Of a DNA stretch of 43,753 nucleotides, positions 5,303 to 39,839 are shown one piece after another. The translations under genes were made by a program, and so were the position numbers. The notes beneath the pieces were generated by a model. It did not search any database, was not told the origin of the DNA, and was given only the letters and a program-made list of their open reading frames with translations. The stretch comes from an uncultured Nitrospirales bacterium. GTDB taxonomy: Bacteria > Hydrogenedentota > Hydrogenedentia > Hydrogenedentales > CAITNO01. The DNA is taken from positions 1 through 43,753 of the forward strand of contig CAZBNU010000006.1 in the NCBI GenBank assembly GCA_964493075.1, read 5' to 3'. The first letter of the stretch is position 1; every line of letters begins with the position of its first letter.

Positions 5303-5306
5303 TGTT

Positions 5307-7751: not shown

Positions 7752-7864
7752 GAAACAGATCGTTGTTGTTTAACTGAAAAGATGCTACAATAGACTCAAT
7801 CAGAATGGGGGGGCATCTTAAGGGGTTTAAATTCCAGCATCTCAATGCCACAGGATATAGGTAT

Positions 7865-11275: not shown

Positions 11276-12692
11276 AAAAGCACCAAGACAGAGAATGACG
11301 GAACAGCCGCCAATGGATCGCATCCATAATTTCAATGAAGTGCCTTTTGGCTTGACGGATGAACAGGCGGTTACTGAGGCATCGCGTTGTTTGAAATGCA
11401 AGAAACCCAAATGTGTCGAAGGTTGCCCTGTTAATATTGATATTCCGGGTTTCATTAAGGCAATCGAAGAAAAAGACTTTCGTGGTGCCTTTAATGTTAT
11501 CAAGACCACCAATTCGCTACCAGCGGTATGCGGTCGTGTCTGTCCTCAGGAGAGCCAATGTGAAGAATTATGTATTCTTGGCAAGAAGGGCGATCCAGTG
11601 GCTATCGGTTGTCTTGAGCGTTTTGTGGCGGACTATGAACGTGATCGCGACCGTGTTGCGCCTGTACCGCCCGACAAGGAAACAGGCCGCAAGGTTGCTA
11701 TTATCGGTTCCGGCCCTGCCGGGCTTACCGCAGCAGGTGAAATGCGACGCTTGGGCCATGATGTCACGATTTTCGAAGCCTTCCATAGTCCCGGCGGCGT
11801 GTTGGTGTACGGCATTCCTGAGTTCCGCCTGCCCAAGGAAATTGTGCATTACGAAATTAGTGCGCTCGAACAGATTGGCGTGAAACTGGTGCGCAACCGG
11901 GTGGTTGGCATGTCGGAGACCATAGACGACCTGATGCGACAGGGTTTCGAAACTGTGTTCATCGGTTCTGGCGCCGGACTACCCTTGTTCTTGAATATCC
12001 CTGGTGAGAATTTTATTGGTGTCTATACGGCAAATGAATATCTGACCCGCAACAATCTGATGAAGGCCTACAGGTTCCCCGAATACGATACCCCCATCAT
12101 CAAGGGTAGGAATGTTGCGGTATTCGGTGGCGGTAATGTCGCCATGGACTCTGCACGTACCGCGAAACGGCTTGGCGCAGAGAATGTATATATCATCTAC
12201 CGTCGTTCCAAAACAGAGTTGCCCGCCCGTGCCGAAGAAGTGCATCATGCCGAAGAAGAAGGCATCATTTTCCAACTGCTTTCCAATCCAACCCGCTTTC
12301 TGGGCGATGAAAAAGGCCGGTTGTGCGGTGTGGAATGCCTGCAGATGAAACTTGGGGAACCCGATAAGTCGGGCCGTCCCCGTCCAGTACCAATGGAAGG
12401 TTCGGAGTTCGTCGTGGATATAGACCTCGCCATCATCGCAATCGGCAACTCGCCAAACCCGATTATCCAGCGCACTACAGCAGGGCTGGAGACAACGCGT
12501 TGGGGTACGATTGTGGCAAACGAAAAAACCATGCAAACCACCAAGCCAGGCGTATTTGCTGGCGGCGACGTGGTGACAGGCGCAGCAACCGTGATTCTCG
12601 CCATGGGCGCAGGACGCACTGCCGCGCAGGCCATGCACAAGTATCTCATGGGTGAACCCCTCGAAGAAGAAGCGGAAGCACCCGCCGAATAG
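11268..12692 (+). CDS. nfnB: NADPH-dependent glutamate synthase small-chain homologue (NfnB)
   Basis: 474 aa. Cys motifs CLKCKKPKCVEGCP and CGRVCPQESQCEELC, dinucleotide folds VAIIGSGPAGLTAAGE and VAVFGGGNVAMD. Overlaps nfnA by 8 nt. Confidence 0.88.
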   Translation: MPEKAPRQRMTEQPPMDRIHNFNEVPFGLTDEQAVTEASRCLKCKKPKCVEGCPVNIDIPGFIKAIEEKDFRGAFNVIKTTNSLPAVCGRVCPQESQCEELCILGKKGDPVAIGCLERFVADYERDRDRVAPVPPDKETGRKVAIIGSGPAGLTAAGEMRRLGHDVTIFEAFHSPGGVLVYGIPEFRLPKEIVHYEISALEQIGVKLVRNRVVGMSETIDDLMRQGFETVFIGSGAGLPLFLNIPGENFIGVYTANEYLTRNNLMKAYRFPEYDTPIIKGRNVAVFGGGNVAMDSARTAKRLGAENVYIIYRRSKTELPARAEEVHHAEEEGIIFQLLSNPTRFLGDEKGRLCGVECLQMKLGEPDKSGRPRPVPMEGSEFVVDIDLAIIAIGNSPNPIIQRTTAGLETTRWGTIVANEKTMQTTKPGVFAGGDVVTGAATVILAMGAGRTAAQAMHKYLMGEPLEEEAEAPAE

Positions 12693-12717
12693 ACTGTAAC
12701 GCACAAAAAATACTGAC

Positions 12718-12755
12718 GCAGCCGATTGATGACTAGCCGGCTGCGTTTTGTTTAG
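12718..12755. terminator. Bidirectional intrinsic terminator between convergent nfnB and hicB
   Basis: A 9-bp stem, ACGCAGCCG (12718-12726) with CGGCTGCGT (12740-12748). It is followed by TTTTGTTT on the plus strand and by a T-run (TATTTTTT) on the minus strand. Confidence 0.7.
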
Positions 12756-12803
12756 GGGGCAGATAAATATGTTGTGGTGCAGGCTTCAAGCCCATACTAT
12801 GCG

Positions 12804-13043
12804 TCAGGCAACCCCCTGCATTTTGTTTGCATAATCGCGGCATGATGTTGCTGGCGGCAAATTACGTCCTTCGCTGCGATAAAGGGCAATAGTCTCTTCG
12901 ACAATAGCGCACAAATGTACGAAAACTTCCTTCTCGTCTGATCCATGACAACCACCGTACAATAGACCGGGTGCGCTGCCCACATAACAATTGTCTTCTT
13001 CAGACCATTCGATAATCTTTGCGTAACGATCCGTTTCTTTCAT
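12804..13043 (-). CDS. hicB: HicB-like antitoxin (short form, no recognisable DNA-binding domain)
   Basis: 79 aa. YAKIIEWSEEDNCYVGSAPGLLYGGCHGSDEKE is typical of short HicB-like antitoxins. ATGA overlap with hicA. Confidence 0.8.
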   Translation of the reverse strand: MKETDRYAKIIEWSEEDNCYVGSAPGLLYGGCHGSDEKEVFVHLCAIVEETIALYRSEGRNLPPATSCRDYANKMQGVA

Positions 13044-13237
13044 TTGTTGATCTCCCTGAGCGCCGATTGGACGGCGCGTATCTGATAATGTTTGGCATCA
13101 TCATTCATATTTCCGGAAACTGTTATTGGTTTTGAAATAAGGGGATGCATGAAATTTCGATGACTTCCTTTTCCACCACGATCACTAAACCCAGCACTCA
13201 GTAGGTCTTTGACAAGGTCTCTTACTTTTGGCGGCAT
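13040..13237 (-). CDS. hicA: HicA mRNA interferase toxin
   Basis: 65 aa. The pattern KVRDLVKDLLSAGF...GKGSHRNFMHP matches the HicA/YcfA family, including the catalytic-region GSH. Confidence 0.85.
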   Translation of the reverse strand: MPPKVRDLVKDLLSAGFSDRGGKGSHRNFMHPLISKPITVSGNMNDDAKHYQIRAVQSALREINK

Positions 13238-13508
13238 AATTTACTCCAGCAATACTAAACTCAACCTATTATACACATCACTATAACGGGTTTGGAGGGG
13301 ATGAAGCAACAGAGGTAAGGAGACGTATAATTATGTGGAAAAATGATGAATCTTGGACTTTTCCTTATTTGAAAAAAATATGCTCACAGCCACTGGCAGC
13401 CTGAAATCACTGCCTATGTTGCAGTACCCGTATCCCGTTGCGTACACTACAGTAACGGGGTTATGTAACCGTATTGTATCTATTGCCAGCCAACAAGGAC
13501 TATCCTGC

Positions 13509-15548
13509 ATGAGTGAAAGAATGTATATGCGTTTTAAAGCCGTATTTCTGAGTGTTGCCTTCATGTTATGCATCAACATGGTGGCGCACAGTGACACAAC
13601 CTTGTCTGATGCCATTAAAGTCGCTGTGGACAAGGTTAACCCGGCACTGGTGCGTATTCAAGTGGTAGAGGCGTACTATCGTGAGGGGCGCGAGATGAAA
13701 TACGAGGCATCGGGTAGCGGTGTGGTTATCACTCCTGAGGGTCATGTGATTACAAATCATCATGTGGCTGGTCACGCAAAACAGCTGAAATGTGTGTTCG
13801 CTGATAAATCAGAATACGAGGCGGAACTGGTAGGCACCGATCCCCTAACGGACATTGCTGTTATCTTACTGAAAGGGGAAGAAGGTACGCGTTTTCCGAC
13901 CGTATCCTGGGGAGATTCTGCCCTGGTGCAAAAGGCAGACCATGTACTGGCTATGGGAAGTCCATTGGCCTTGTCGCAATCGGTTACGTTGGGCATTATC
14001 AGCAACACGGAAATGATTATGCCGGAGTGGATGAGTCAGTATGGTGGACTTACCATGGATGGCGAGGATGTCGGTGCGCTGGTGCGATGGATAGCCCATG
14101 ATGCCCAGATATTTGGCGGTAACTCGGGGGGGCCGTTGGTGAACTTGAACGGAGAAATTATCGGCATCAATGAAATCAGCATGGGACTCAGTGGAGCGAT
14201 CCCCAGCAATCTGGCGAAGAGCGTTGCCAACGAACTGATGGCTACCGGAAAGGTTCGCCGGGCCTGGGTGGGCCTTGAAGTACAGCCCCGTCTTAAATCT
14301 TCGGAGGACCAGACCGGGGCGCTCATAAGCGGCGCCATTGCGGACTCGCCTGCTTCCAAAGCGGACATTAAATCCGGTGATATGTTGTTGTCGATAGCAG
14401 GTACGCCGGTGAATATCCAGTTTCCTGTGCAGTTGCCTGATCTCAATCTGCTTGTCTGCTCGCTACCGATTGGCGAACCCGTTCCATTTGTTATTAAGCG
14501 GGGAGAGGAAACGCTAACGGTCGAAGTAACCCCTATAGAACGGGAGCCCTATGAACCGAAACAGTTTGAGCAATTGCAGTGGGGAATTACCATTCGCGAT
14601 ATTTCTTTTATGATGGCCCGCGAAATGAAAAGAGAAAACACTGACGGTGTGCTGGTGACATCGGTGCGTTCCGGAGGCCCTTCTGGCGATGCACGGCCAC
14701 CCCTGTCCGAAAAGGATATAATCGTTGCCGTGGGTTCCATACCTGTGAAGAACGTGCGGGAGTTTCTGGAAGCAACGGATACGCTGATAAAGGATGCGAA
14801 GGAGCCGGTTCCCGTGTTGACGACATTCGAGCGGAAAACTGACCGTCTGGTGACGGTGGTCAAGGTAGGCATACGCGAATTGAGTGATCCGGGATTGGAA
14901 GTGAAGAAAGCCTGGTTGCCAGTGGAATACCAGGTCGTCACCCGTGATATTGCCGAATTGCTTGGGGATGCTGACTTGACCGGATTTCGTGTTACCCACG
15001 TTTACAAGAAGAGCAGTGCAGAAGAAGCGGGGATACTCGTGGGTGATCTCATTCTCGCCGTGGACGACGAGGTGATGACAGCTTCTTCGCCGGAACATTA
15101 CGAGGAACTTTCCGCATACATACGTCAATACCCGATAAATGAAACAATATCTTTGAAAGTTAAACGGGGCGATAAGGAGTTGGTACAGGAGGTCAAGTTG
15201 GCACAGGCGCCAAAACTAGCGCGGGAGATGAAGAAGTATCAGGACGAAGTCTTCGAGTTTACCGTGCGCGACATTACCTTCTTTGATCGTGCCTCTGAAC
15301 GCTGGGATGAGAAGCAGGAAGGGGTGTTGGTGGAACAGGTGAAGCCTGGCGGGTGGGCGGCCCTTGGCCGCTTGTCTGTGGGCGACCTCATCGTTGCAAT
15401 TGATGAGACGGTTATAAACCAAGTTTCCGATGTGCGCGAAAAAATGAATGTGATGAACGCGGAGAAAATTACCTCGGTGGTGTTCAAGGTAAAACGCGGC
15501 ATACGGACTCTGTATCTCGAACTTGAACCCAAATGGAGTACCCGCTGA
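13509..15548 (+). CDS. Secreted HtrA/DegP-like trypsin-fold serine protease with about four PDZ domains
   Basis: Catalytic triad contexts TNHHVAG (His), DIAVILL (Asp) and GNSGGPLV (Ser). A signal-like segment (FKAVFLSVAFMLCINMVAHS) follows the ATGs at 13509, 13521 and 13527. Four successive PDZ-like segments of about 90 aa follow (GALISGAI.., GVLVTSVR.., FRVTHVYK.., GVLVEQVK..). Confidence 0.85.
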   Translation: MSERMYMRFKAVFLSVAFMLCINMVAHSDTTLSDAIKVAVDKVNPALVRIQVVEAYYREGREMKYEASGSGVVITPEGHVITNHHVAGHAKQLKCVFADKSEYEAELVGTDPLTDIAVILLKGEEGTRFPTVSWGDSALVQKADHVLAMGSPLALSQSVTLGIISNTEMIMPEWMSQYGGLTMDGEDVGALVRWIAHDAQIFGGNSGGPLVNLNGEIIGINEISMGLSGAIPSNLAKSVANELMATGKVRRAWVGLEVQPRLKSSEDQTGALISGAIADSPASKADIKSGDMLLSIAGTPVNIQFPVQLPDLNLLVCSLPIGEPVPFVIKRGEETLTVEVTPIEREPYEPKQFEQLQWGITIRDISFMMAREMKRENTDGVLVTSVRSGGPSGDARPPLSEKDIIVAVGSIPVKNVREFLEATDTLIKDAKEPVPVLTTFERKTDRLVTVVKVGIRELSDPGLEVKKAWLPVEYQVVTRDIAELLGDADLTGFRVTHVYKKSSAEEAGILVGDLILAVDDEVMTASSPEHYEELSAYIRQYPINETISLKVKRGDKELVQEVKLAQAPKLAREMKKYQDEVFEFTVRDITFFDRASERWDEKQEGVLVEQVKPGGWAALGRLSVGDLIVAIDETVINQVSDVREKMNVMNAEKITSVVFKVKRGIRTLYLELEPKWSTR

Positions 15549-15564
15549 TCCAGTACAAACCGAA

Positions 15565-18234
15565 TTATTGCAAGCGATCCAGCAGCATAAATGCCTCTGG
15601 AAATATGTGTCGTGCATCTTCGTCATCAAGTTGATCCATCAATTCGCGAATACGCGCTGGGTTTGCGTCTACATAATAGGACTTGTAGAAGGGGAGGAGT
15701 TCCGGCATCATGTCGGCAAGCGTTTCAAATACTTCCCTGCCAGCGCTGTCTTGTCCTGCCCCTGTGAAGGAACGCCACCGTGCCCATAATACCCACGAAT
15801 CCTGTTCCGCCTGCAGTACGGGATTATCCGCCAGCAATGCCGCCTCCTCATAGTTGCCGAGTGCAACAAGGCTGTTCATCAACAGATAGAGGATATAGGC
15901 ATTGTCAGGGGCATGGTCAAGGGCTACACGCAATGCCGACTCGGCGGCGTGATGATTGCCCAGAGCGGCTTCCGCAATGCCTAGACGCATGTAAAGCCAC
16001 CGGTATTCAGGCCACTCTTCGATGCCGTCTTTTAGCAGGAGAACCGCCTGCTCATAGGATTTGGTTTCTGTGAGGGAGATGCCATAAGCTTCAATGACTT
16101 CAGGCGGCATATTGTGAACCATACCCGTGTACTGTTGGAAGAAGTGAACTGCCTTCTGATGGTCTCCGGATTTATGGGCGGCAATTCCTAAGTAGAGAAA
16201 TGACTCCGGACAGGCCAGGGAGGGTTCTGCCCCAAATTTTCCCAATGCCGCGATAAATGGCGTGTTATCCGTGTAAAATGCGGTCGGCATGTATTTTTTA
16301 AGTTGATCACATGAGGATGTGCCGGGGTTTCGGAGAGCAATATTCGCTAATTGTTCCAAGTTGAGAACAACATCGAGTGACGTTGCAAGGGCTGACACTC
16401 TTGTTGCTGCAACCAGGCTGCTTTGTGTTGCCTTGGCAAATGCGGAAGCCGCCAAGTCAGTATACCCGGCAATGGAAGATTCAATGCCCAACCGCAGCCA
16501 AAATCCGCCTTCTTCGTCGGGAAGATATTGAATTTCCTTCATCGTGTGATGAATGAGAGGAAGCGACGCATTTTGAGCAAGTTTATTGATCAAATTGTTA
16601 AAAATAGTTTTCCCATCTTCTTCTATTGTCTCTGTCGCAGAAAAATTACTGGGAGATATTCTGTATAGAGCAAGGTCACGCTCCCCTGGAGAATAGCGGC
16701 GCTCGTAGGCTAGATGGTTGTTTTTCAGGCATGACATGAAAGTTGTCTCATCAAAGTCCGTAGTCAGCACCAAAAGAATCCAGATTTCTGGCATCGTGTC
16801 ATTTGATGGCATACACAAAAGTGATGCAGTTTCGCAGAGCGTTCCCCGATTGAATGCGGCGACAATAGGAACGGGAGGTGTTCCCTCAATATTTATCTTC
16901 AATACCGGGAGAAAAAAGGGGTCTTCTAGAAGAAGGATAGCATCCGTTTCTTTTGATTGGATCACATGTTCGTAATTCTGTCGCCAGGCAGAACGGGTTT
17001 GCGGAGGAAGGGCAATGGAAAGTTGGTAGAGGTAAAGGACTCCTATGAAAACTAACCCGGCAGGATAAAGGCGCTTGCGGGTCAAGAGACCTATCATCCC
17101 GCCTGCGAGCAGATAGAAAGCAAACATGCTGTACATGACATACCGGGAACCATAAACAGGTCGCCATACAAAGGATAACAGCGTAATCGATGCTACGGGC
17201 AACAGCGCCCAACATAAGAGCAGTGCCCAGCGCAGCACGGCCTCCCGTTCTCTTTTTTTGAAGCCCTGGATAAGAAACCAAAATCCGGCGCAGAGTGATG
17301 TCAGTGACAACAAAACGAGAAGTCCATCAAATATAGTGTGGTTGTCCCGTATCCATTGTTGAAAAGGGGCAGGCATAAAATACCAGGAAACCGTGGAGGG
17401 GAAGAAAGATGTCGCAGAAAGGGAAGTGCTGTCCCCGGAAAAAGTATGAATGAATACCGTGGAGGGCGTAGGTAGTTCGTAGTAACTGTAAAGTTCTTCG
17501 GCCTGCTGTGGAATAGCGCTCACCCAGGCAACCAATACGACCATCAGCAGCCCATGGCTAAGCCCCCATAAAAATGCCCTGAAATTTAGACGTCGTTCTG
17601 CAAGTAGAAGTACCACACCATATACCGGCAGTAGAAACACGGCAAAGTAATGACTGAAAACAAGTGCACCATTGGATAGAAGGTGCAGGAACCACCAGCG
17701 CAGGTGTTGTGTTCGCAAACCCAGCAGAAAGGTGATCATGCCGCATAAGGTAAACAGCGAAACGAACGCATACATGCGCGCTTCCTGAGAATGAAAAACG
17801 TGAACGGGAGAAAAAGTGATGCAGGTCAGTACCACCAGGGCGGCTTTTCGGGAGAGGGCGCTGGGCTGGAATAGCAGGCGGGTTGCACAATATCCCAAAA
17901 ACATAACGGCGATTCCGGCAAGGGCGGACAATAGACGTATATGGGCAATGGAATCGCCCGCGATTTTTGTCCAGAAATAGAACAAGGCAGGGGTTAGTGG
18001 TGCGCCGTAAGGATACAGGTCTCTCTGCTGTTCAAAAAAGGCGGAAAAGTCCGGTGTTCCCAACGCACTGACACAGGCATATTCTTCGAGATCAATGGAT
18101 TCACCGCCCAAATTATAAAGGCGTACACCGGTTCCAAGTGCAAGCAGAAGGATACATAAGAAAATATGTGTATCAACCGTTATGCCTTTATGCGGCCTGT
18201 TCTCAGATAAGGTGTTGTTCTTTTTTAAGGGCAT
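15565..18234 (-). CDS. Polytopic membrane glycosyltransferase-like protein (GT39/ArnT/PMT_2-like N-terminal half) fused to C-terminal TPR repeats
   Basis: 889 aa. The first ~400 aa contain about 11 hydrophobic helices. The C-terminal ~250 aa carry TPR-like repeats (YLGIAAHKSGDHQKAVHFFQQY; LGIAEAALGNHHAAESALRVALDHAPDN). Confidence 0.65.
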   Translation of the reverse strand: MPLKKNNTLSENRPHKGITVDTHIFLCILLLALGTGVRLYNLGGESIDLEEYACVSALGTPDFSAFFEQQRDLYPYGAPLTPALFYFWTKIAGDSIAHIRLLSALAGIAVMFLGYCATRLLFQPSALSRKAALVVLTCITFSPVHVFHSQEARMYAFVSLFTLCGMITFLLGLRTQHLRWWFLHLLSNGALVFSHYFAVFLLPVYGVVLLLAERRLNFRAFLWGLSHGLLMVVLVAWVSAIPQQAEELYSYYELPTPSTVFIHTFSGDSTSLSATSFFPSTVSWYFMPAPFQQWIRDNHTIFDGLLVLLSLTSLCAGFWFLIQGFKKREREAVLRWALLLCWALLPVASITLLSFVWRPVYGSRYVMYSMFAFYLLAGGMIGLLTRKRLYPAGLVFIGVLYLYQLSIALPPQTRSAWRQNYEHVIQSKETDAILLLEDPFFLPVLKINIEGTPPVPIVAAFNRGTLCETASLLCMPSNDTMPEIWILLVLTTDFDETTFMSCLKNNHLAYERRYSPGERDLALYRISPSNFSATETIEEDGKTIFNNLINKLAQNASLPLIHHTMKEIQYLPDEEGGFWLRLGIESSIAGYTDLAASAFAKATQSSLVAATRVSALATSLDVVLNLEQLANIALRNPGTSSCDQLKKYMPTAFYTDNTPFIAALGKFGAEPSLACPESFLYLGIAAHKSGDHQKAVHFFQQYTGMVHNMPPEVIEAYGISLTETKSYEQAVLLLKDGIEEWPEYRWLYMRLGIAEAALGNHHAAESALRVALDHAPDNAYILYLLMNSLVALGNYEEAALLADNPVLQAEQDSWVLWARWRSFTGAGQDSAGREVFETLADMMPELLPFYKSYYVDANPARIRELMDQLDDEDARHIFPEAFMLLDRLQ

Positions 18235-33237: not shown

Positions 33238-33522
33238 CTAAATATCTTTCTTTTCGCCAGCAACATCCAATAGTCTTTGTTCCAGTACTGGCGCGATGAA
33301 ACGACCGGCCTGTTTTAATGATGATAGACCAATCTTTATCGAAGGGATTACCTGTTTCTTTTTGGCAATGAGAATAATGCCGCCCGTGCCAATTACTGAT
33401 AGCCCTAAGGAATAAGCACAACGGCGGGCTTGGGCATCATCAAGTACAGCGTGATATTCCTGATGATTGTAGACGTGGTTGATAAGAGGAGAGGCATTGA
33501 CAACAATAGTCTTAATCGGCAT
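33238..33522 (-). CDS. DUF3368 (PIN-like) toxin homologue, apparently shortened and degenerate
   Basis: 94 aa. N-terminus IVVNASPLIN and C-terminus LGLSVIGTGGIILIAKKKQVIPSIKIGLSSLKQAGRFIAPVLEQRLLDVAGE fit my recollection of the ~150-aa DUF3368 family. The middle of the protein seems to be missing, and the first conserved Asp reads Asn. Confidence 0.6.
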   Translation of the reverse strand: MPIKTIVVNASPLINHVYNHQEYHAVLDDAQARRCAYSLGLSVIGTGGIILIAKKKQVIPSIKIGLSSLKQAGRFIAPVLEQRLLDVAGEKKDI

Positions 33523-33766
33523 TTGCAGATTCTCTCAACAATTCATCCATTGAATACTGAAACGGCGATACTTTTGCTTCTGAAAGCGCGGTGATAAAGT
33601 CTGAACGTGAAAGTCCGGCAATCTCCGCGCCCTTCCCCTGAGATATTTTTCCCTGTTCATACCACTTTGTGGCGGCGGCAATGCGCAACTCACTAGCAAA
33701 GAGTTCTGGCGGCACATGAAGTGCTGCAAAAACTGATTCCGGAAAATCTATCGTTATCGTTGTCAT
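33512..33766 (-). CDS. UPF0175 family antitoxin-like protein
   Basis: 84 aa. LRIAAATKWYEQGKISQGKGAEIAGLSRSDFITAL is typical of UPF0175. Overlaps the DUF3368 gene by 11 nt. Confidence 0.75.
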   Translation of the reverse strand: MTTITIDFPESVFAALHVPPELFASELRIAAATKWYEQGKISQGKGAEIAGLSRSDFITALSEAKVSPFQYSMDELLRESANAD

Positions 33767-33807: not shown

Positions 33808-34344
33808 TCACAGTGTCTCAATGGTGATATGTGTATTCGTATAGATGCAGATTTCTGCGGCGATGCGCAAGGACTTGTCCACGATTTCCTGGGCGTTGAG
33901 GTCGGTATGGTTTGAGAGGGCGCGGGCGGCTGCGAGGGCATAGGAGCCGCCGCTCCCGATGGCGAGGATGCCGTCTTCCGGTTCGATGATTTCACCGCCA
34001 CCGGAGATGAGCAGCGACATATTCCGGTCGCTCACGGCAAGAAGCGCGTTCAACTGGCGCAGGTATTTGTCGGTACGCCATTCTTTGCCCAGTTCCACGG
34101 CAGCGCGGAGCAGGTTCTTGTTGAACTCCTTCAGTTTGCCTTCAAAACGCTCGAAGAGGGTGAAGGCGTCCGCCACAGCGCCCGCGAATCCTGCCAGCAC
34201 TTCGCCGTCAGCAAGGCGACGCACTTTGGTGGCATTCCCTTTCATGATCGTGTCGCCAATGGTTACCTGGCCATCGCCGCCCATGGCGACAACACCGTTT
34301 TTCCGGACGCATAATACGGTTGTGCCGTAAAATGTTTGTGTCAT
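33808..34344 (-). CDS. hslV: ATP-dependent protease subunit HslV (ClpQ)
   Basis: 178 aa, alignable by eye along its full length with E. coli HslV and B. subtilis ClpQ ([11 protein letters not shown]..., [32 protein letters not shown]). A short MTQTFYG propeptide precedes the TT nucleophile. Confidence 0.93.
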
Positions 34345-34434
34345 GTTCGTTTCTCCAATCTGCAGTAAGTTTTGTAATTGCGACTATGCTTTTCTATTAT
34401 ACCTGTTGGAAACGGTATAATTCCCTTTAGTGGT

Positions 34435-34515
34435 CGTCATTGCGAGGTACGAAGCAATCTCAACAACTCTCATGTCATTACTGTGCACCGGATTGCTTCG
34501 TACCTCGCAATGACG
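34435..34515. repeat. Palindromic element E3: perfect 25-bp inverted arms, 31-nt loop, CGTCATT termini
   Basis: CGTCATTGCGAGGTACGAAGCAATC (34435-34459) against GATTGCTTCGTACCTCGCAATGACG (34491-34515). All 25 positions were checked. It lies in the divergent hslV / acetyltransferase intergenic region. Confidence 0.9.
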
Positions 34516-34553
34516 GGTTTAATAGTTGGCTGAATGAATCATGGAGAACCCCT

Positions 34554-35267
34554 ATGTCTCTCAGAAGAAAATGGCGGCGCTGGGTTAACAGCCGTAAATT
34601 TGTGCGCGTCGGCAAGCGTTGTAGTATTGATGGCTACAACATTGAAATTGACGGCCATGTAGAACTGGAAGATTTCTGCAAGGTGCGCAGCAACACCATC
34701 ATGCGCACCAACGGCGGCGGCAAGATTCTGATCGGCACCTATTCCGGAATCAGTTATAATTGTGTTTTCGAGGCGCGTACTATCATCCAGATAGGCAAGT
34801 ACACGGGCATTGCCGAGTTTTGCGTTATCCGGGACACGAACCATGCGGTGATCGGCACTTCCGAACACTGGCGGCTTACACCCCACATCTCGCAGCCCAT
34901 CGTGATAGGCGACGGCTGTCTCATCGGAAGCGGGTGCTATATTTCGCCTGGCGTTGCCATTGGCGACGGCGCGGTGATTGCCCAGCACAGTGTGGTGACA
35001 AAAGACGTGAGGCCCTTCGAGGTCTGGTCCGGCAACCCGGCGCGCAAGGTGGCGCACCGGATCCATGGCATCCCGGAGACCATGCAGAAACGCTATCAGG
35101 AACTGCTCGACACCTATGGCGTTCGCGACATCCGCCACGGGTTCCAGAAACAGGCAGAAGAAATCCGCGACGCAGTAAACCTTGAGGGCAACCGCGCCGC
35201 GGAGGAACGTGATCGGCTTATGGCGTTGTTTGCTGCTGAACCAAAGGACAGCGAAACAACTTCGTAA
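34554..35267 (+). CDS. Left-handed beta-helix (hexapeptide-repeat) acyl/acetyltransferase with a ~60-aa charged C-terminal tail
   Basis: ATG at 34554 with a GGAG starting 11 nt upstream (34543-34546). Hexapeptide run IGDGCLIGSGCYISPGVAIGDGAVIAQHSVV, then the family-typical FEVWSGNPARKV. Confidence 0.8.
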   Translation: MSLRRKWRRWVNSRKFVRVGKRCSIDGYNIEIDGHVELEDFCKVRSNTIMRTNGGGKILIGTYSGISYNCVFEARTIIQIGKYTGIAEFCVIRDTNHAVIGTSEHWRLTPHISQPIVIGDGCLIGSGCYISPGVAIGDGAVIAQHSVVTKDVRPFEVWSGNPARKVAHRIHGIPETMQKRYQELLDTYGVRDIRHGFQKQAEEIRDAVNLEGNRAAEERDRLMALFAAEPKDSETTS

Positions 35268-35268
35268 T

Positions 35269-37185
35269 TTATGATTGTCCCGGGGCAATATAGGTGGTCG
35301 CTATGAGCGACTGATAATCATTCACCTGCCCGCCGTCCAGACAGCACTCGATGATGGTCTTGCCGAGGGGGTGCAGTTCGGGAACCATGAACTGGCGGAT
35401 ATGGCGGTGGAAGAATTCCGTCAGAATTTCGGCGCCTTCGTCATAGGCGGCATCGCCCACTTCGGGCTGTGTGTTTACCTGCAGCAGCCAGCGGGGTACA
35501 GAATAACCCTCCAGGGTGACATGCTGCAAGGCATGCCCCAGCAGCGGGCATCGGGCTGGACGGAACTGGTCGGTCTTGAACTTCGCAATACCCCGTCGCG
35601 CAAGGTATTCACGGGTGATCCATTGCGGCATAAAGCCGACTTTCCAGGCGCCCACATTCTGATTCGGACACAGAATATGAACCACCTTGGGTGTCGCCAG
35701 TATCTGGTTCAAGAGTAGGTTGGCATGTTCCACTTTCAAGCCCGGCGCAAAGGGCCAGTAGGAACCGACACCCTCAGAGGTCATTCCTTCGGAATCCACT
35801 ATGCTCGGGTTGTCATGGCCGCGGGGCGCCACAAGTCGCCACAGCCAGGACAGCGACGGCGGCAACAGGTGGAACAGTCCGATGATTCCATACGTGGGGT
35901 GTGCGGCGGTGCAAGGCGGTGTGCGCACGCCCAGACTGCGGATGTCCACCGCAACCGGCTCTTCTACAACATCCGGCATGGCGCGGCGCGGCAGGATAAC
36001 CCGCGGGTTTGGACAGGGTTTGTTGGGCATATCCATGGTGTGTTCCCAGATAAGGGCGCGGCTATTGGGTACGGCATCTATATTCAGGAACAACAGTGGT
36101 TCTTCCGGTTGTGCCGTTAATGCCTCAAACATCGGATCCGTACCGTAGCTGTCAATGTGATTTACACGGACAAACCAGGCGTTTTCCGCGTCTACAACAG
36201 TCAACTTGCCGTCGCCTTTTTGTATGGAGGGATGGCAGAGCGCCATGTCGTCCGTTACGGGACGCAGTGCGCAGCCACGCGGGATTTCCAGAAACCGTCT
36301 TTCATCGGTAACTGTATTCACGCCCAGCAACAGACGTCCGTCTGCTTCGCGGTGTGCTACTTCCAGCATTTCGCTTTTGCCGCCACCGCTGGCGCCTTCG
36401 TGCATGATGGTCAGCGTGTTGTCGTAAGGGGTCACCACCTGTACCACCGAACAGTGGGCCGTCACCCAGCCTTCCCGTTCACCGAGTCCCAGCAGGCTTC
36501 CGTATACGCCTTTTTTGGCGCTCGGTCCCGGGTACAGGTTGTACGCAAAGATTTCATGGCTTTGCTTGCCCCGTTTATGCACCACAACCTGTTTGCCGTC
36601 GAAGTGGGTGTGCCGGAAGGGCGGCGCAATATAGAGAATAAGTTGCGGACTGAATTTGGAGGGAAGGTCTTCGGGGGGGATGATCCCTTGAAGCATGGCG
36701 AGTCCAAGCGCAAAGAACCCTGCGTTGGCGGGCGCAATTACCATCGCATCCATGCCCATCTTGCGACGACCCGCCACAAAGCCGAATACGGCAAGTTCCT
36801 GTTCTTTCAGCCATGCCATCGTTTCCTGGCGCAACGGTTCAAAAGAACCGTTGAAGCGTTCCGCGTAGGTGGGTTTGTCGGTAGGCAAATCGTCTCCGAT
36901 TACCATGCAGTCCGGATCGCGGCGACGCATATAAATATCCGTGTAATTCGCGCAGATGCCATTGCGCACCCGTGCAACAGTTGCCTCTACCACAGTGCCT
37001 TTACCGGGCACATCGTAGCCCACCTCAAAATAGTCGCTGTCCGCACCACCACAGGCAAGGTCTACCAGCTCCGTGGTAGTTGCAGCAACAGTAACCTTGG
37101 GACTTGCTTCCAGAATGGCTTGGGCTTCGGGAGGCGGATTGAACAACCGCCATCGGTCTGTTTGTTTGTCTTTGTTCTGTTGCAT
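35269..37185 (-). CDS. Uncharacterised 638-aa protein with a PEPCK/HprK-like P-loop (resembles my recollection of DUF4914)
   Basis: HEGASGGGKSEMLE resembles the GxSGxGKSE P-loop of HPr kinase and the kinase-1a motif of PEPCK. A downstream acidic pair, RPVTDDMALCH, follows. No function is known to me. Confidence 0.55.
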   Translation of the reverse strand: MQQNKDKQTDRWRLFNPPPEAQAILEASPKVTVAATTTELVDLACGGADSDYFEVGYDVPGKGTVVEATVARVRNGICANYTDIYMRRRDPDCMVIGDDLPTDKPTYAERFNGSFEPLRQETMAWLKEQELAVFGFVAGRRKMGMDAMVIAPANAGFFALGLAMLQGIIPPEDLPSKFSPQLILYIAPPFRHTHFDGKQVVVHKRGKQSHEIFAYNLYPGPSAKKGVYGSLLGLGEREGWVTAHCSVVQVVTPYDNTLTIMHEGASGGGKSEMLEVAHREADGRLLLGVNTVTDERRFLEIPRGCALRPVTDDMALCHPSIQKGDGKLTVVDAENAWFVRVNHIDSYGTDPMFEALTAQPEEPLLFLNIDAVPNSRALIWEHTMDMPNKPCPNPRVILPRRAMPDVVEEPVAVDIRSLGVRTPPCTAAHPTYGIIGLFHLLPPSLSWLWRLVAPRGHDNPSIVDSEGMTSEGVGSYWPFAPGLKVEHANLLLNQILATPKVVHILCPNQNVGAWKVGFMPQWITREYLARRGIAKFKTDQFRPARCPLLGHALQHVTLEGYSVPRWLLQVNTQPEVGDAAYDEGAEILTEFFHRHIRQFMVPELHPLGKTIIECCLDGGQVNDYQSLIATTYIAPGQS

Positions 37186-37267
37186 GCTTTTGCTCCTGTA
37201 GTTGTTTCGCGGGTTATCAGCAGAAATTTGGGTATAAACGTATGCGCAGGCGAAAAAGATGACACCT

Positions 37268-38011
37268 TTAGTCGGTTATTTTACTGCAAACCACCTGATC
37301 GTAGTCGTAAACCCCTGCAATGTGCCCGCCCGGCGGAATCACCAGAAATTGTTCTTCCGGCCAATTGCCCGTTATCAAAGATTCAATAAGACGAATGCTC
37401 CCCGGCAGATGTTGCATGTTTTTGCCTGCCGACTGCATATACGCTTTTATCCGTTCAATAAGTACGTCTATATGGGTTTCAGGAACATCAATTAACGGAA
37501 TGTCCGGGCTATCATGGTGTGCCGTCAGGGCATCCACGAGATAACGGGCGTTTTCTTCGCCATAGATTTCAGCCAGTTCCAGGAAAGACTGTCCGCCCTG
37601 ACCGAAAGAACGGGCGTCTCCGTCAGAGAAAACAGAATCGCCGCGCTCTGAATACCCCACCGAGGTCCATGCCTGACTGGGATTGCCGCCAAAGTGTTCT
37701 TCAAATGCCTGTTTCGATCCCAGAAACAGGGTGGTGCAGTCGTGGGCGCGGGGGATCACCAGCGGAAACCGTTTGGCAGTAAGGCCGATGGTCGCATTGC
37801 CGCATAAGCCATAAGCCAAAAGCACGGCATCATAGGCAATATCGCCCTCAGCGGCGACATCAATCTGCTCCTGCAACAGTTCCCGCAATCGGGAAGGGTG
37901 GTTATGCTCTCCTTTTGCGAAAAAGGACAGGTCTAGGGTGTTGGGCGATCGTGCGGCGCACCAGCATACCTCACGGGTGAGTACGTCGCAAGCCAGAACA
38001 CGGAAATGCAT
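37268..38011 (-). CDS. DUF1638-like Cys-rich protein
   Basis: 248 aa from the ATG at 38011 with a GGAG upstream. VLACDVL, LLAYGLCGN and VIPRAHDCTTLFLGS match the DUF1638 pattern as I recall it. Confidence 0.6.
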   Translation of the reverse strand: MHFRVLACDVLTREVCWCAARSPNTLDLSFFAKGEHNHPSRLRELLQEQIDVAAEGDIAYDAVLLAYGLCGNATIGLTAKRFPLVIPRAHDCTTLFLGSKQAFEEHFGGNPSQAWTSVGYSERGDSVFSDGDARSFGQGGQSFLELAEIYGEENARYLVDALTAHHDSPDIPLIDVPETHIDVLIERIKAYMQSAGKNMQHLPGSIRLIESLITGNWPEEQFLVIPPGGHIAGVYDYDQVVCSKITD

Positions 38012-38063
38012 AGAGTTCTCCTGTTTACATTTAGTTGGCACAGTAACCATGCGCAACGGGCAA

Positions 38064-38513
38064 TTATTCCCCGGACTTGGCAGTATTGCTCTTGAGAAAC
38101 TCATCCAACGCTCGCCACGGCAGCACCGCGCACTTGATGCGCATGGGATAAGCGCGTACGCCAGCGAAAGCCGCCAGATTACCCAGCGCAGCCTCGTCAA
38201 CAGGTGCATCGGGCGATTCCTGAAGCATCGAATGAAACGCCTGATAAAGGGCATGAAACCCATCCACGGTTTTGCCCTGTAATATCTCTGTCAGCATGGA
38301 GGCGCTTGCCTTGGAAATGGCACATCCGTTCCCTTCGAAGGTGATTGCCGAAAATGTCTGATTCTCCAGTTGAATATACAGTTTGAAGGTATCGCCGCAC
38401 AGAGGATTATACGCATCAATCACGGCGGTTGCATCATCCCTTTTGGAATAGTTCTTCGGATGTTTGTTATGTTCAAGAATCAGCTGTTCATAGAGCACAT
38501 TAGACTCCGACAT
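38064..38513 (-). CDS. sufU: SUF-type Fe-S cluster scaffold/sulfur-transfer protein SufU
   Basis: 149 aa. The three conserved Cys contexts are NPLCGD, GNGCAISKASASM and RIKCAVLPW. Confidence 0.9.
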   Translation of the reverse strand: MSESNVLYEQLILEHNKHPKNYSKRDDATAVIDAYNPLCGDTFKLYIQLENQTFSAITFEGNGCAISKASASMLTEILQGKTVDGFHALYQAFHSMLQESPDAPVDEAALGNLAAFAGVRAYPMRIKCAVLPWRALDEFLKSNTAKSGE

Positions 38514-39745
38514 TACGCAAAAACCTTTCTTACCTGGTGCAGCCCGCGTACCAGAGTGTCAATATCCTGCTTCGTGTTGTAAAGGCCAAATGAGGCGCGG
38601 GCTGTGGCCGGTATGCCATAAAACTGCATCAGCGGTTGGGCACAATGATGACCGGAACGGATGGCTACGCATTCATGGTCCAATAACTGGGCAATATCAT
38701 GAGGATGGGCGCAGTCCATGGTAAATGATAGCACACTGGATTTGTGGGTTGCAGTGCCGAGTATGGTAAGCCCCTCGATTGTTGTCAACGCTTCCGACGC
38801 ATACTGCAACAATTCCTGTTCGTGTTTTATGATGCTATCCATACCGATACCCTCAAGGTACTCAACAGCAGCAGCCAATCCTGCAGCGCCGGCGATGTGC
38901 GGCGTGCCCGCCTCAAACTTCTCAGGGGCGTTTCTGAAGGTAGTTTCATCAAAAGTCACCGTGGTGATCATGCCACTGCCGGTCTGGAAGGGACACATCG
39001 CTTCCAGCAGTTCTGTGCGCCCACATAACACGCCGATGCCGGTAGGACCATACATTTTGTGACCGGAGCAACAGAAGAAGTCTGCCCCCATTTCCTGCAG
39101 AACAATTTTCAGGTGCGCCGCACTCTGGGCGCCATCCACGAGGCATACTGCCCCCTGACTTCTTGCCTTGCTGCAAATATCCCGAACAGGATTTACTGTG
39201 CCGAGCACATTGGATATATGCGTTACGGCTACGAGTTTCGTTCGTTCATTCAGCAGACGGTCAAATTCGGCCATGACCAATTCCCCCGATTCGGTGATGG
39301 GAACTACCCGAAGATTCGCGCCTGTTGACCGGCACAGCATTTGCCAGGGCACGATATTCGAATGATGTTCCATCTGGGTTATCAGAATTTCATCATCGGC
39401 ATGCAAGAAGGATTGTCCGAATCCATGAGCCACCAAGTTTATGGACTCCGTGGTACCGGAAGTAAACACGGTTTCGTAGCCAGCATCGGCGCCTAGAAAT
39501 CCGCTGACAGTTTTTCGTGCAGCATCATAGCTTTCGGAAGCCTTCTGACTGAGATAATGCAGACCACGATTCACATTGGCATTTTGGCAGGTGTAAAAGT
39601 TCACCAGCGCGTCAATGACGCACTGGGGCTTCTGGGTCGTAGCGGCGTTGTCCAGGTAAGCAGGCAATTTACCCTGTATCGGGACACGGAGTATTGTAAA
39701 ATCGTTGCGGAAAGCATCGTTATCTTTGTTGGCGTGAGTACTCAA
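38513..39745 (-). CDS. sufS: Cysteine desulfurase SufS (group II)
   Basis: 410 aa with a TTG start. PLP-Lys context SGHKMYGPTGIGVL and active-site RSGHHCAQPLM. Its stop overlaps the sufU start by 1 nt. Confidence 0.92.
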   Translation of the reverse strand: MSTHANKDNDAFRNDFTILRVPIQGKLPAYLDNAATTQKPQCVIDALVNFYTCQNANVNRGLHYLSQKASESYDAARKTVSGFLGADAGYETVFTSGTTESINLVAHGFGQSFLHADDEILITQMEHHSNIVPWQMLCRSTGANLRVVPITESGELVMAEFDRLLNERTKLVAVTHISNVLGTVNPVRDICSKARSQGAVCLVDGAQSAAHLKIVLQEMGADFFCCSGHKMYGPTGIGVLCGRTELLEAMCPFQTGSGMITTVTFDETTFRNAPEKFEAGTPHIAGAAGLAAAVEYLEGIGMDSIIKHEQELLQYASEALTTIEGLTILGTATHKSSVLSFTMDCAHPHDIAQLLDHECVAIRSGHHCAQPLMQFYGIPATARASFGLYNTKQDIDTLVRGLHQVRKVFA

Positions 39746-39802: not shown

Positions 39803-39839
39803 TAGAAAATCAGGCTTTTGCACAAGACAAAAGCCTGAT
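39803..39839 (-). terminator. Intrinsic terminator after the DUF1559 gene
   Basis: A 12-bp stem, ATCAGGCTTTTG (39809-39820) with CAAAAGCCTGAT (39828-39839). On the minus strand it is followed by TTTTCT. Confidence 0.7.

Follow-up and report, generated by a model that had tools for sequence, protein, structure and literature searches.

In the window (the whole 43.7-kb stretch of DNA that was analysed), probably from a Hydrogenedentota bacterium, the ORF calls place sufS, sufU, a DUF1638 gene and a DUF4914 gene one behind the other on the minus strand (Table 1), which raises the question of whether the four genes form a dedicated enzyme system or combine separate functional units. A sequence-only reading had favoured the former, and its description of the layout holds, as the gene order, the 1-nt sufS/sufU overlap and the 52-nt and 82-nt gaps agree with the coordinates. 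Both spacers carry an AGGAG Shine-Dalgarno sequence 6-8 nt ahead of the ATG at the spacer end, and, as had been noted, no hairpin plus T-run separates the genes: a simple consensus scan found neither terminator-like sites nor a promoter-like consensus in either spacer of the window, and the sufU-DUF1638 spacer has no Rfam match. For the DUF1638 gene, the longest ORF extends back to 38263. The sole convincing terminator-like site is found between the preceding DUF1559 gene and sufS, upstream of the latter, and probably marks where the sufS transcription unit begins, while a weak terminator-like score at 36720-36737 falls inside the DUF4914 coding region. Because the terminator scan was a simple consensus scan, co-transcription of the four genes is regarded as plausible, no more. 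In relatives, the DUF1638-DUF4914 spacer measures 83-124 nt, and a promoter-like CTGTGATACACT motif, not conserved in the window, is kept in this spacer in four of them.

Table 1. Coordinates of the sufS-sufU-DUF1638-DUF4914 locus and its borders in the window.
Feature	Position	Strand	Description
Terminator-like hairpin + T-run	39809..39839	-	13-bp stem, then T-run; between DUF1559 gene and sufS
sufS	38513..39745	-	410 aa; first gene of putative operon; ORF call
sufU	38064..38513	-	149 aa; start codon overlaps sufS stop codon by 1 nt
sufU-DUF1638 spacer	38012..38063	-	52 nt; AGGAG Shine-Dalgarno 7 nt before ATG
DUF1638 gene	37268..38011	-	247 aa from ATG at 38011
DUF1638-DUF4914 spacer	37186..37267	-	82 nt; AGGAG ribosome-binding site
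DUF4914 gene	35269..37185	-	638 aa; ORF call
Hexapeptide-repeat acyltransferase gene	34440..35267	+	Convergent with DUF4914; Pfam Hexapep

The first two genes encode familiar proteins. By its profile matches, the sufS product is a type II (SufS-family) PLP-dependent cysteine desulfurase (Pfam Aminotran_5, 480.6 bits; NCBIfam TIGR01979 for SufS, 558.5 bits, cutoff 475.1), the encapsulin-cargo model NF041166 covering the catalytic part only and staying, at 577.9 bits, under its cutoff of 800. The sufU product is, on the same kind of evidence, a sulfur-transfer protein (Pfam NifU_N, 85 bits; TIGR01994 for SufU, 146.3 bits, cutoff 92.5). The pair resembles Bacillus-type SUF in that each protein exceeds its curated NCBIfam cutoff and sufS and sufU are translationally coupled. 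It differs in that sufBCD is neither adjacent nor elsewhere in the window, where, as noticed earlier, none of the large ORFs has a SufB, SufC or SufD domain, and in that DUF1638 follows sufSU in three related lineages.

For the third gene, the profile-HMM check bore out the DUF1638 assignment (Pfam PF07796, 85.4 bits, cutoff 27). The cysteine contexts that had been thought conserved are so among 77 homologues, C8 (ACDVL) and C70 (GLCGN) being invariant and C92 (HDCTT) at least 90% conserved; H90 and D91 are also invariant in the homologue alignments. An AF2 model (pLDDT 88.5), which has no significant structural neighbour in the PDB, places all five residues in the first alpha/beta domain, where three beta-strands have their C-terminal ends. 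The earlier view that neither family has an assigned function stands for DUF4914, which is mentioned in no paper of the searchable literature library, but not for DUF1638, which published genetic work connects with RamA/RACo in corrinoid (B12) reactivation: in Phaeobacter, a DUF1638 gene is co-fit with a RamA-like activase and with split methionine synthase, and phylogenetic co-occurrence with RamA is on record as well (PMC5764234; PMC12478193). The window protein shares PF07796 membership with this module, and its close and distant homologues have RACo, B12-binding and URO-D/MtaA-type neighbours. In other metagenomes, DUF1638 homologues adjoin RACo, corrinoid (B12-binding) proteins and URO-D-type methyltransferases, with URO-D-type neighbours in 9 DUF1638 loci and the order URO-D, DUF1638, RACo, PocR/AraC regulator, B12-binding protein, URO-D in L121 and L129. 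The window differs from the module in that RACo was not found in its 43.7 kb and no B12-binding protein among its large ORFs, its only corrinoid-type gene being an ORF 31 kb away (5307-6383) for a URO-D-like protein homologous to the URO-D-type neighbours, and in that its DUF1638 gene is flanked by sufSU and DUF4914, neither of which is reported for the module.

The DUF4914 assignment was likewise upheld, over the full length of the protein (Pfam PF16260, 1032.7 bits), and the P-loop GASGGGKSEM and acidic TDD that had been pointed out are present at residues 264-273 and 311-313, the latter 42 residues past K270. All of the top 50 PDB matches in Foldseek are ATP- or GTP-dependent PEP carboxykinases (PEPCKs), matched over the full length (E 1.2e-17 to 1.3e-14, probability 1.00, TM 0.50-0.67); the AF2 model is mediocre (pLDDT 65.7), with low confidence around the P-loop and DD region. 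Alignment to E. coli Pck by hhalign (E 2.4e-4 and 1.2e-4, at probabilities of only 44-56%) pairs YMRRRDP with FTGRSPKD (R65), Y218 with Y207, K224/K225 with K212/K213, H244 with H232, S266 and K270 with S250 and K254, NPRV (R395) with NTRV (R333), and GVRTPP with GVLPP, whereas the equivalences to the PEPCK DD pair (D268/D269) and K288 are our own reading of the sequences, hhalign having set DD one motif further on. The R-x-R motif, Y218, K224/K225, H244, S266, K270, D312/D313, R340 and R395 are invariant in 198/198 close homologues, and ten more distant members (eight at 29-43% identity) keep the catalytic residues save for single substitutions at H244, R340 and G264.

As modelled, DUF4914 is a divergent enzyme with a PEP-carboxykinase fold. 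It shares with PEPCK (PckA PF01293; PEPCK_GTP PF00821) the full-length two-domain fold (Foldseek E about 1e-17), the P-loop, Y-x5-KK, an H-C-S motif 20 residues later, the DD pair, N-x-R-V-x-x-P, G-V-x-x-P-P and Arg equivalents of R65 and R333. It differs in being only about 12-17% identical, in having GKSE, as in HprK, instead of GKTT in the P-loop, in a ~28-residue insertion between P-loop and DD pair, in a subfamily-specific Cys quartet, in an unusually high identity of 62-71% across phyla, and in often being accompanied by a PocR/AraC or LysR regulator of its own. HMMER profiles draw no connection between the families, as DUF4914 has no match at this level to PF01293 or PF00821 and Pfam at E<=1 returns DUF4914 alone, and a PDB sequence search gave no match.

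HprK/P, which had been named alongside PEPCK as a possible relative, is ~310 aa long and PEPCK-like in its C-terminal domain only. The GxSGxGKSE P-loop, the hydrophobic-strand-DD motif and the structural superfamily are common to both proteins, whereas DUF4914, with 638 aa, aligns with PEPCK over both domains. An HprK-like architecture of DUF4914 is contradicted by this two-domain alignment, by a Foldseek top 50 that comprises PEPCKs and no HprK chain, and by the lack of a Hpr_kinase Pfam match, so that the earlier fold claim survives for the PEPCK/HprK superfamily, with a complete two-domain PEPCK fold, but not for an HprK-like architecture. The conserved small-molecule-binding Arg and Tyr of PEPCK also argue against a protein substrate. 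The Cys quartet flanks the DD and R395 motifs (C305, C317 and C391 in 198/198 and C425 in 195/198 of the core subfamily), but, unlike the PEPCK-type catalytic residues, it is missing from distant members, which makes a family-wide Fe-S or persulfide mechanism appear unlikely.

The full four-gene order was found in the window and in L087/L088, whose SufS is only 65% identical. The syntenic loci L178/L179 have sufS-sufU-DUF1638-hslV and lack the segment with DUF4914 and the hexapeptide transferase that the window and L087/L088 contain. Altogether sufS-sufU-DUF1638 is retained in three related lineages (SufU 55-83%, DUF1638 73-90% identity), and SufSU is present in no other DUF1638 or DUF4914 locus examined. 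The clade's other branch has RACo, the corrinoid reductive activase, and not SufSU as third member beside DUF1638-DUF4914: DUF1638-DUF4914(-RACo) occurs in L001, L174, L175 and L093, with DUF4914 between the other two in L001 and L174. DUF4914 also adjoins RACo in L089 and DUF1638 in L093, L175, the window and L087, and the outer flanks differ among all these loci. That DUF4914 repeatedly adjoins DUF1638, RACo or both, in at least four contexts with different flanks, could reflect a genuine link in function. The close relatives L090, L091, L176 and L177 have DUF4914 with neither DUF1638 nor RACo nearby.

Linkage of DUF4914 was surveyed in 80 species-representative loci and 9 close-clade contexts. 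Neighbourhoods are highly variable, and DUF1638, SufSU and RACo are near DUF4914 at 0/80 loci of other species (within 10 kb for DUF1638 and RACo). Conversely, 1/80 metagenome DUF1638 loci has DUF4914 beside DUF1638 and 79/80 do not, and SufSU is absent from all 80. The four-gene grouping is clade-restricted, not a conserved system, and the DUF1638-DUF4914 pair is not conserved across either family; of its supposed linkage to sufSU, the sufS-sufU-DUF1638 part persists. Together, L178/L179 and the 0/80 count indicate that SufSU tracks DUF1638 and that DUF4914 is an independent PEPCK-like enzyme. At 13/80 unrelated DUF4914 loci, a PocR-sensor/AraC regulator is transcribed divergently upstream. 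Regulators of this architecture are also seen in DUF1638-RACo-corrinoid clusters, and MtaR, from methanol methyltransferase operons, has it too (PMC13602510).

The sequence-only reading had taken DUF1638 and DUF4914 for a dedicated persulfide- or Fe-S-dependent, nucleotide-using pair, fed with sulfur or clusters by the minimal SufS-SufU. Co-orientation with short, terminator-free spacers, a gene order that persists in L087/L088 despite appreciable divergence, the three conserved DUF1638 cysteines and the core-subfamily quartet all speak for it, but we consider it quite improbable, as the linkage is clade-restricted, SufSU is at none of the 80 species DUF4914 loci, 9 close-clade contexts and 80 metagenome DUF1638 loci, L178/L179 do without DUF4914, RACo is the partner in sister lineages, and the quartet is lost where the catalytic residues persist. 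At the other extreme, the genes could be four unrelated housekeeping neighbours, with DUF4914 as the organism's (alternative) PEP carboxykinase and DUF1638 unrelated to SufSU. Their variable surroundings, the indel-like behaviour of DUF4914 plus hexapeptide transferase relative to L178/L179 and the complete PEPCK catalytic set agree with this, which nevertheless seems rather unlikely, as sufS-sufU-DUF1638 is kept in three lineages and DUF1638-DUF4914 amid differing flanks. The DUF4914 Pfam entry was presumably built mostly from Bacteroides species in which canonical PckA is present as well, which argues against a simple PckA replacement.

A role of DUF4914 alongside DUF1638 and RACo in corrinoid reductive activation, the window being a cluster that lost RACo, is also quite doubtful; DUF4914 might, for example, give PEP- or oxaloacetate-linked nucleotide-handling support to the ATP-dependent reduction of Co(II) to Co(I), or have a metabolite of the corrinoid pathway as its substrate. 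Its position between or beside the functionally coupled DUF1638 and RACo, with differing outer flanks, and the shared regulator architecture favour such a role. However, the adjacency is limited to one subclade (DUF4914 identity at least 79%) and could go back to one ancestral gene order that individual breakpoints have since broken up, neither partner is found at the 80 other species loci or in the four close relatives named above, the promoter-like spacer motif in relatives hints at separate transcription, and PocR domains are not B12-specific but sense many small molecules.

The explanation that we prefer, with about an even chance of being right, is that three functional units have come together at this locus in a mosaic that is specific to the lineage and probably co-transcribed, and that does not amount to a dedicated two-enzyme system; any coupling of function among the genes is putative. 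SufS and SufU would be an ordinary cysteine desulfurase and sulfur acceptor, mobilising sulfur for Fe-S biogenesis. DUF1638 would assist in reactivating corrinoid (B12) methyltransferases or methionine synthase, as the genetic partner of the reductive activase RamA/RACo; Cys8, Cys70 and Cys92, with His90 and Asp91, at the strand ends of its Rossmann-like domain, may form a metal or Fe-S cluster site, and because that site would bind metal or Fe-S, sufSU may have been recruited directly upstream in this sublineage. The adjacency of DUF1638 and DUF4914 in the window would be the remnant of a clade-specific DUF1638-DUF4914-RACo cluster of Hydrogenedentota-like bacteria, whereas in most bacteria DUF4914 apparently stands alone, with a PocR/AraC- or LysR-type regulator of its own. 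DUF4914 itself would belong to the PEP-carboxykinase structural superfamily, highly diverged but keeping the residues that align with the entire PEPCK catalytic set, namely the P-loop for the nucleotide, KK, H and DD as Mn/Mg ligands, and the Tyr and two Arg for oxaloacetate/PEP. It would most likely catalyse a phosphoryl transfer that requires a nucleotide and a divalent metal and is coupled to (de)carboxylation, with oxaloacetate/PEP or a close analogue as the probable substrate, and it offers enzyme discovery a good target.

The six-frame ORF list bore out four minus-strand genes, namely sufS, sufU, a DUF1638 gene and a DUF4914 gene, together with the spacers of 52 nt and 82 nt that the sequence-only reading had reported. 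Both spacers are closed by an AGGAG ribosome-binding site, and a consensus-only scan found no terminator-like site in either of them, in line with the earlier claim that no hairpin plus T-run separates the genes. The sole strong hairpin with a T-run is located upstream of sufS, following the DUF1559 gene that precedes it, while one weak terminator-like score falls inside the DUF4914 coding region. Promoter-like matches in the consensus-only scan were fewer than the shuffle expectation, so that it speaks neither for nor against internal promoters. No Rfam element, and in particular no cobalamin riboswitch, matched the spacers or the region upstream of sufS at the gathering score or at E<=1, and the tRNA search of the same check found none. 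In four relatives (L093, L001, L174 and L175; L handles denote related loci from other genomes or metagenomes), the spacer between DUF1638 and DUF4914 keeps the motif CTGTGATACACT, which is like an extended -10 promoter element and only vestigial in the window and in L087 (GGTGTCA); in these four lineages, DUF4914, or DUF4914 with the corrinoid (B12) reductive activase RACo, may thus have a promoter of its own.

Positions of the features discussed, in the window and in related loci
Sequence	Feature	Position	Strand	Remarks
Window	sufS	38513-39745	-	410 aa
Window	sufU	38064-38513	-	149 aa; 1-nt overlap with sufS
Window	DUF1638 gene	37268-38011	-	247 aa from ATG at 38011; maximal ORF back to 38263
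Window	DUF4914 gene	35269-37185	-	638 aa
Window	URO-D/MtaA-family protein	5307-6383	-	358 aa
Window	UPF0175 and PIN-like DUF3368 ORFs	33238-33766	-	84 aa and 94 aa; small, overlapping
Window	DUF4914 and hexapeptide acyltransferase segment	34440-37185		Missing from L178/L179
Window	Raised GC	34001-37000		Up to 0.56-0.57; flanks about 0.48-0.50
Window	Strong hairpin and T-run	39809-39839
Window	Weak terminator-like score	36720-36737
Window	Region compared with L178 and L179	33808-40892
L178	Region compared with window	6104-9409
L179	Region compared with window	609-3914
L093	Spacer with CTGTGATACACT	1340-1466
L001	Spacer with CTGTGATACACT	7870-8006
L174	Spacer with CTGTGATACACT	5517-5653
L175	Spacer with CTGTGATACACT	6874-7006
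L129	PocR/AraC regulator	12299-13546
L021	~290-aa downstream protein	3947-4756
L040	~290-aa downstream protein	6028-6921
L062	~290-aa downstream protein	5254-6135
L030	~290-aa downstream protein	11797-12747
L004	Carboxylation-related neighbours	9927-17884

The first two genes are readily classified. SufS is a type II cysteine desulfurase by TIGR01979 (558.5 bits, cutoff 475.1) and SufU follows TIGR01994 (146.3 bits, cutoff 92.5), with Aminotran_5 and NifU_N also matched, respectively. No SufB, SufC or SufD domain was found among the large ORFs of the window that were scanned, hence the window does not hold a complete SUF system, and the earlier remark that sufBCD is missing stands. The best-scoring NCBIfam model for SufS is that of the family 2A encapsulin cargo cysteine desulfurase (NF041166, 577.9 bits). 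A cargo identity was rejected: the score falls short of the cutoff of 800, and the match is confined to model positions 221-622, so that the N-terminal targeting region (positions 1-220) is missing. The protein is therefore a plain SufS that is kin to the encapsulin cargo clade. SufSU is ordinary.

The DUF4914 assignment proposed earlier was confirmed by a full-length match to PF16260 (1032.7 bits, cutoff 25.7; residues 18-628 on model positions 2-612 of 612), and hmmscan at E<=1 gives no second Pfam family. The family comprises at least 8000 clusters at 90% identity; at the 50% level it has 718 (E<=1e-3), of which many are fragments. Relatives are encoded in at least 591 stretches of species-representative genomes, and 80 loci were kept from these, with an identity of 62-71% between their products and the window protein; they derive from Hydrogenedentota, Verrucomicrobiota, Chloroflexota, Planctomycetota, Bryobacterales, Omnitrophota, Chromatiaceae, Accumulibacter and Propionivibrio, so that this identity range spans Hydrogenedentota, Verrucomicrobiota, Chloroflexota, Planctomycetota, Acidobacteriota and Proteobacteria. 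Judged from these sequences, the conservation is exceptional and the family large. Orthologues are also encoded by the cultured Anaerolinea thermolimosa IMO-1 and Ornatilinea apprima P3M-1 (L026, L036). A tblastn search against PLSDB gave no plasmid match. The gene has a GC content of 56.8%, as opposed to 49.8% in its flanks. Horizontal acquisition was considered for this raised GC but is not clearly indicated by it: the gene exceeds its flanks in other low-GC hosts as well (L019, 0.41 vs 0.34; L087), whereas it equals them in high-GC hosts, hence the shift is probably intrinsic to a very conserved protein rather than a sign of recent transfer.

What kind of enzyme DUF4914 may be is indicated by its predicted structure. 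The AF2 model, built with 23 homologues, is of moderate confidence (pLDDT 65.7, pTM 0.66), and its best 50 Foldseek matches in the PDB are all PEP carboxykinases (PEPCK), with E 1.2e-17 to 1.3e-14, probability 1.00, TM 0.50-0.67 and about 620-730 aligned columns; the two-domain fold is covered. These whole-length matches comprise both ATP-dependent (Thermus, E. coli, Anaerobiospirillum, Actinobacillus) and GTP-dependent (chicken, rat) enzymes, and no HPr kinase (HprK) chain is among the 50. Profile-profile alignment by hhalign to E. coli Pck gave E 2.4e-4 and 1.2e-4, with a probability that stayed modest because the PckA homologues retrieved were all from Enterobacterales, with 86% identity or more. 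The alignment pairs YMRRRDP (R87-89) with FTGRSPKD (R65), NLYPGPSAKKG (Y218, K224/K225) with TWYGGEMKKG (Y207, K212, K213), AHCS (H244) with MHCS (H232), the P-loop GASGGGKSE (S266, K270) with GLSGTGKTT (S250, K254, T255), CPNPRVILP (R395) with TENTRVSYP (R333), and GVRTPP with GVLPP. Where hhalign is ambiguous, inspection would match PVTDDMAL (D312/D313) to LIGDDEHG (D268/D269) and AWFVR (R340) to GCYAK (K288); an insertion of about 28 residues, a beta-hairpin in the AF2 model, precedes the DD pair. The PEPCK catalytic constellation (P-loop GxxGxGK[ST], Tyr207, Lys212/Lys213, His232, Asp268/Asp269, Arg65 and Arg333 in E. coli numbering) is therefore present, the Asp268/Asp269 pairing being the one made by inspection. 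Across 198 homologues, R87, R88, R89, Y218, K224, K225, H244, S266, K270, S271, E272, D312, D313, R340, N393 and R395 are invariant, and the same set persists in ten more distant members (eight at 29-43% identity), except that R88 varies and single substitutions occur at H244 and R340.

This likeness to PckA and PEPCK_GTP lies in fold and catalytic residues, whereas by sequence DUF4914 falls outside both families: neither PF01293 nor PF00821 was matched by hmmscan at E<=1, and phmmer and hmmsearch against PDB sequences returned no PEPCK and no other solved relative. Canonical PckA was not found in the about 2 Mb of sequence collected for the loci. The P-loop had earlier been described as of PEPCK/HprK type, and both halves of that wording have a basis, the first in the Foldseek result and the second in the GKSE motif, but only this motif resembles HprK. 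HPr kinase/phosphorylase consists of Hpr_kinase_N and Hpr_kinase_C in about 310 aa; DUF4914, with its 638 aa, lacks this architecture, and no Hpr_kinase Pfam match was obtained at E<=1. With the fold and the residue conservation both shown, we conclude that DUF4914 belongs to the PEPCK structural superfamily as a diverged member in which the residues aligned to the catalytic set are retained, and that it is best described as a new sequence family within it. The most economical mechanism would be a nucleotide- and Mn/Mg-dependent phosphoryl transfer coupled to (de)carboxylation, for which we infer oxaloacetate/PEP or a close analogue as substrate.

DUF1638 leads in another direction. Its assignment holds (PF07796, 85.4 bits, cutoff 27), as does the conservation of its cysteines: C8, C70, H90 and D91 do not vary among 77 homologues, and the conservation of C92 and C18 reaches at least 90%. 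The earlier view that neither family has an assigned function applies to DUF4914, which, like PF16260 and IPR032580, is not mentioned in the literature searched, but not to DUF1638, for which genetic evidence exists (PMC5764234; PMC12478193). In Phaeobacter inhibens, cofitness links the DUF1638 gene to a three-piece split B12-dependent methionine synthase and to a RamA-like (DUF4445/RACo) activase, and methionine rescues its mutants, although no mechanism was offered by the authors (Price et al., PMC5764234). A 2025 study names RamA and DUF1638 as a predicted cob(II)alamin-recharging pair (PMC12478193). DUF1638 is a genetically implicated, mechanistically blank component of B12-enzyme reactivation. 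Consistent with this, 80 metagenome loci with the DUF1638 subtype of the window hold an adjacent RACo in three cases, a URO-D/MtaA-type methyltransferase in nine and a B12-binding corrinoid protein in three, and L129 has the order DUF1638, RACo, PocR/AraC regulator, B12-binding protein and URO-D. The RamA/RACo-DUF1638 module occurs in L001, L174, L121, L129 and L133, but not within the window, where tblastn found no RACo and the large ORFs show no B12-binding domain. The window does encode a URO-D/MtaA-family protein (Pfam URO-D, 58 bits, C-terminal half only) that is homologous to the methyltransferases next to DUF1638 in the nine metagenome loci, at up to 31% identity (L104 copy), which suggests that the organism runs corrinoid-dependent methyl transfer.

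The AF2 model of DUF1638 is confident (pLDDT 88.5) and consists of two alpha/beta domains. The conserved Cys, His and Asp residues come after beta-strands 2-8, 62-66 and 84-87 of the first domain, a usual position for a cofactor or metal site, which they may form. No significant structural neighbour was found in the PDB; the Foldseek matches (best E 6.5e-3, TM about 0.2) are generic two-domain alpha/beta folds and were set aside as uninformative. Phmmer and hmmsearch gave no meaningful sequence relatives in the PDB either. The modelled fold currently has no representative among solved structures.

The linkage of DUF1638, DUF4914 and sufSU, on which the sequence-only reading built, is not conserved across the families. 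None of the 80 species-representative DUF4914 loci, among them 48 with 2 kb or more of sequence on each side, contains DUF1638 (tblastn E<1e-5 and DUF1638 HMM), and neither SufU nor RACo was found within 10 kb; the lone SufS-like gene, in L035, is 3.6 kb away and unrelated (29% identity). Conversely, only one of the 80 DUF1638 loci (L093) has DUF4914 and none has SufS/SufU. The complete order of sufS, sufU, DUF1638 and DUF4914, followed by a convergent hexapeptide transferase and hslV, is shared by the window and L087/L088, with identities of 96% for DUF4914, 90% for DUF1638, 83% for SufU and 65% for SufS; SufS is only 65-66% identical to the L087 and L178 proteins, as against the 96% of DUF4914 in L087. 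L178/L179 read penicillin amidase, DUF1559, sufS, sufU, DUF1638 (73% identical), hslV, trypsin/PDZ protease, PMT_2/TPR, Mur ligase and carboxyltransferase. They share with the window the order DUF1559, sufS, sufU, DUF1638 and hslV; their remaining genes are all present in the window, but ordered differently. As they lack DUF4914 and the hexapeptide acyltransferase gene, this two-gene segment represents an indel with respect to close relatives. Further relatives show TPR, DUF1638, DUF4914 and RACo (L001, L174), DUF1638 and DUF4914 before the contig end (L175, L093), radical-SAM, DUF4914 and RACo (L089), or DUF4914 (74-82% identical) with unrelated neighbours (L090, L177, L091, L176). SufSU thus accompanies DUF1638 in three lineages; DUF1638 goes together with DUF4914 in about five contexts, which have two different upstream flanks, and DUF4914 with RACo in three contexts. 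All of these fall into a single subclade, in which the named relatives are Candidatus Hydrogenedentes. The four-gene arrangement is lineage-specific and not a conserved system. An ancestral DUF1638-DUF4914-RACo cluster would, through single breakpoints, give rise to both the window state and that of L089, hence the linkage pattern alone is no proof that selection keeps DUF4914 with either partner. Between hslV and an SSF transporter, the window also carries UPF0175 and DUF3368 ORFs, a probable toxin-antitoxin pair, in place of which L087 has an AbiEii/NTP_transf_5 gene after hslV.

Clustering of ORFs from the 80 DUF4914 loci revealed no universal operon partner, and the partial ones are a PocR/AraC regulator (13), LysR (6), a ~290-aa downstream protein (8), a Mo-hydroxylase (7) and Sua5 (4). 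The regulators are divergent upstream genes, the 13 with PocR sensor and AraC HTH being from Verrucomicrobiota and Tepidisphaerales (PocR/AraC or LysR examples: L030, L031, L034, L051, L058, L060, L062, L064, L065, L079 and others). This PocR+AraC architecture is that of Salmonella PocR, which controls the cob/pdu regulon. It is also found in MtaR, activator of methanol:corrinoid methyltransferase operons (PMC13602510), and inside the DUF1638-RACo-corrinoid cluster of L129. The downstream protein, which directly follows DUF4914, is unannotated, has ~270-300 aa and gives no significant Pfam match. Motifs in its C-terminal part, for instance DHKPRHLIV and (V/I)DYE, are reminiscent of a protein-kinase-like catalytic loop, and it may be a conserved DUF4914 partner in Verrucomicrobiota and Planctomycetota. 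F420_ligase-like (PF01996), SAICAR synthase, PurE, PurK and beta-carbonic anhydrase genes are neighbours in L004, L068, L081, L083 and L085; such CO2/bicarbonate- and carboxylation-related neighbours would suit a carboxykinase, but the loci are too few for significance.

We give about an even chance to the best-supported reading, a lineage-specific four-gene operon that assembles three units. SufS/SufU would mobilise sulfur; DUF1638 would assist corrinoid reactivation as a metal- or Fe-S-binding protein, a role that a desulfurase close by would suit; and DUF4914 would act independently as a PEPCK-type enzyme, having come into the locus or remained there as part of the clade-specific DUF1638-DUF4914-RACo cluster. 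It is rather unlikely that the neighbours are purely incidental and DUF4914 simply an alternative PEPCK. The persulfide- or Fe-S-dependent, nucleotide-using pair of DUF1638 and DUF4914 that was originally proposed, fed by SufSU, has become improbable, as L178/L179 combine sufSU and DUF1638 without DUF4914, none of the other loci has SufSU, and distant DUF4914 members do not keep the Cys quartet. C305, C317 and C391 are found in 198 of 198 homologues and C425 in 195, yet these belong to the core subfamily, and in the ten more distant members the quartet is lost; a family-wide Fe-S enzyme was rejected on this ground.

A real role of DUF4914 in corrinoid reactivation is, in our estimate, just as improbable: its repeated adjacency to DUF1638 and RACo argues for it, and the PocR regulators are a further hint, though weak and indirect, of a tie to corrinoid-dependent or small-alcohol metabolism, while they also fit a conditionally expressed stand-alone enzyme; no such linkage was found in other phyla, which speaks against this role. 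More speculative still, and least probable, DUF4914 could be an unrecognised PEPCK-type class (acting on oxaloacetate/PEP or a related enol/oxo acid) with a redox- or metal-binding Cys quartet, wired to DUF1638 and RACo in Hydrogenedentota, where it might, for example, link PEP-level phosphoryl potential or a C3/C4 metabolite with the ATP-dependent reactivation of B12 enzymes, while SufSU would mature the Fe-S or Cys sites of the module.

The value of the locus lies in two DUFs that have become testable hypotheses, chiefly a conserved and widespread PEPCK-like enzyme, rather than in the proposed Fe-S/nucleotide pair. For DUF1638, the leads to its function are a confident model without PDB neighbour, a strand-end Cys/His site, and adjacency to sufSU or RACo depending on the lineage. 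DUF4914, through its PEPCK fold and the retained residues of the catalytic set, becomes a testable enzyme hypothesis: it may represent a third PEPCK sequence class, or a PEPCK-like enzyme with a new substrate.
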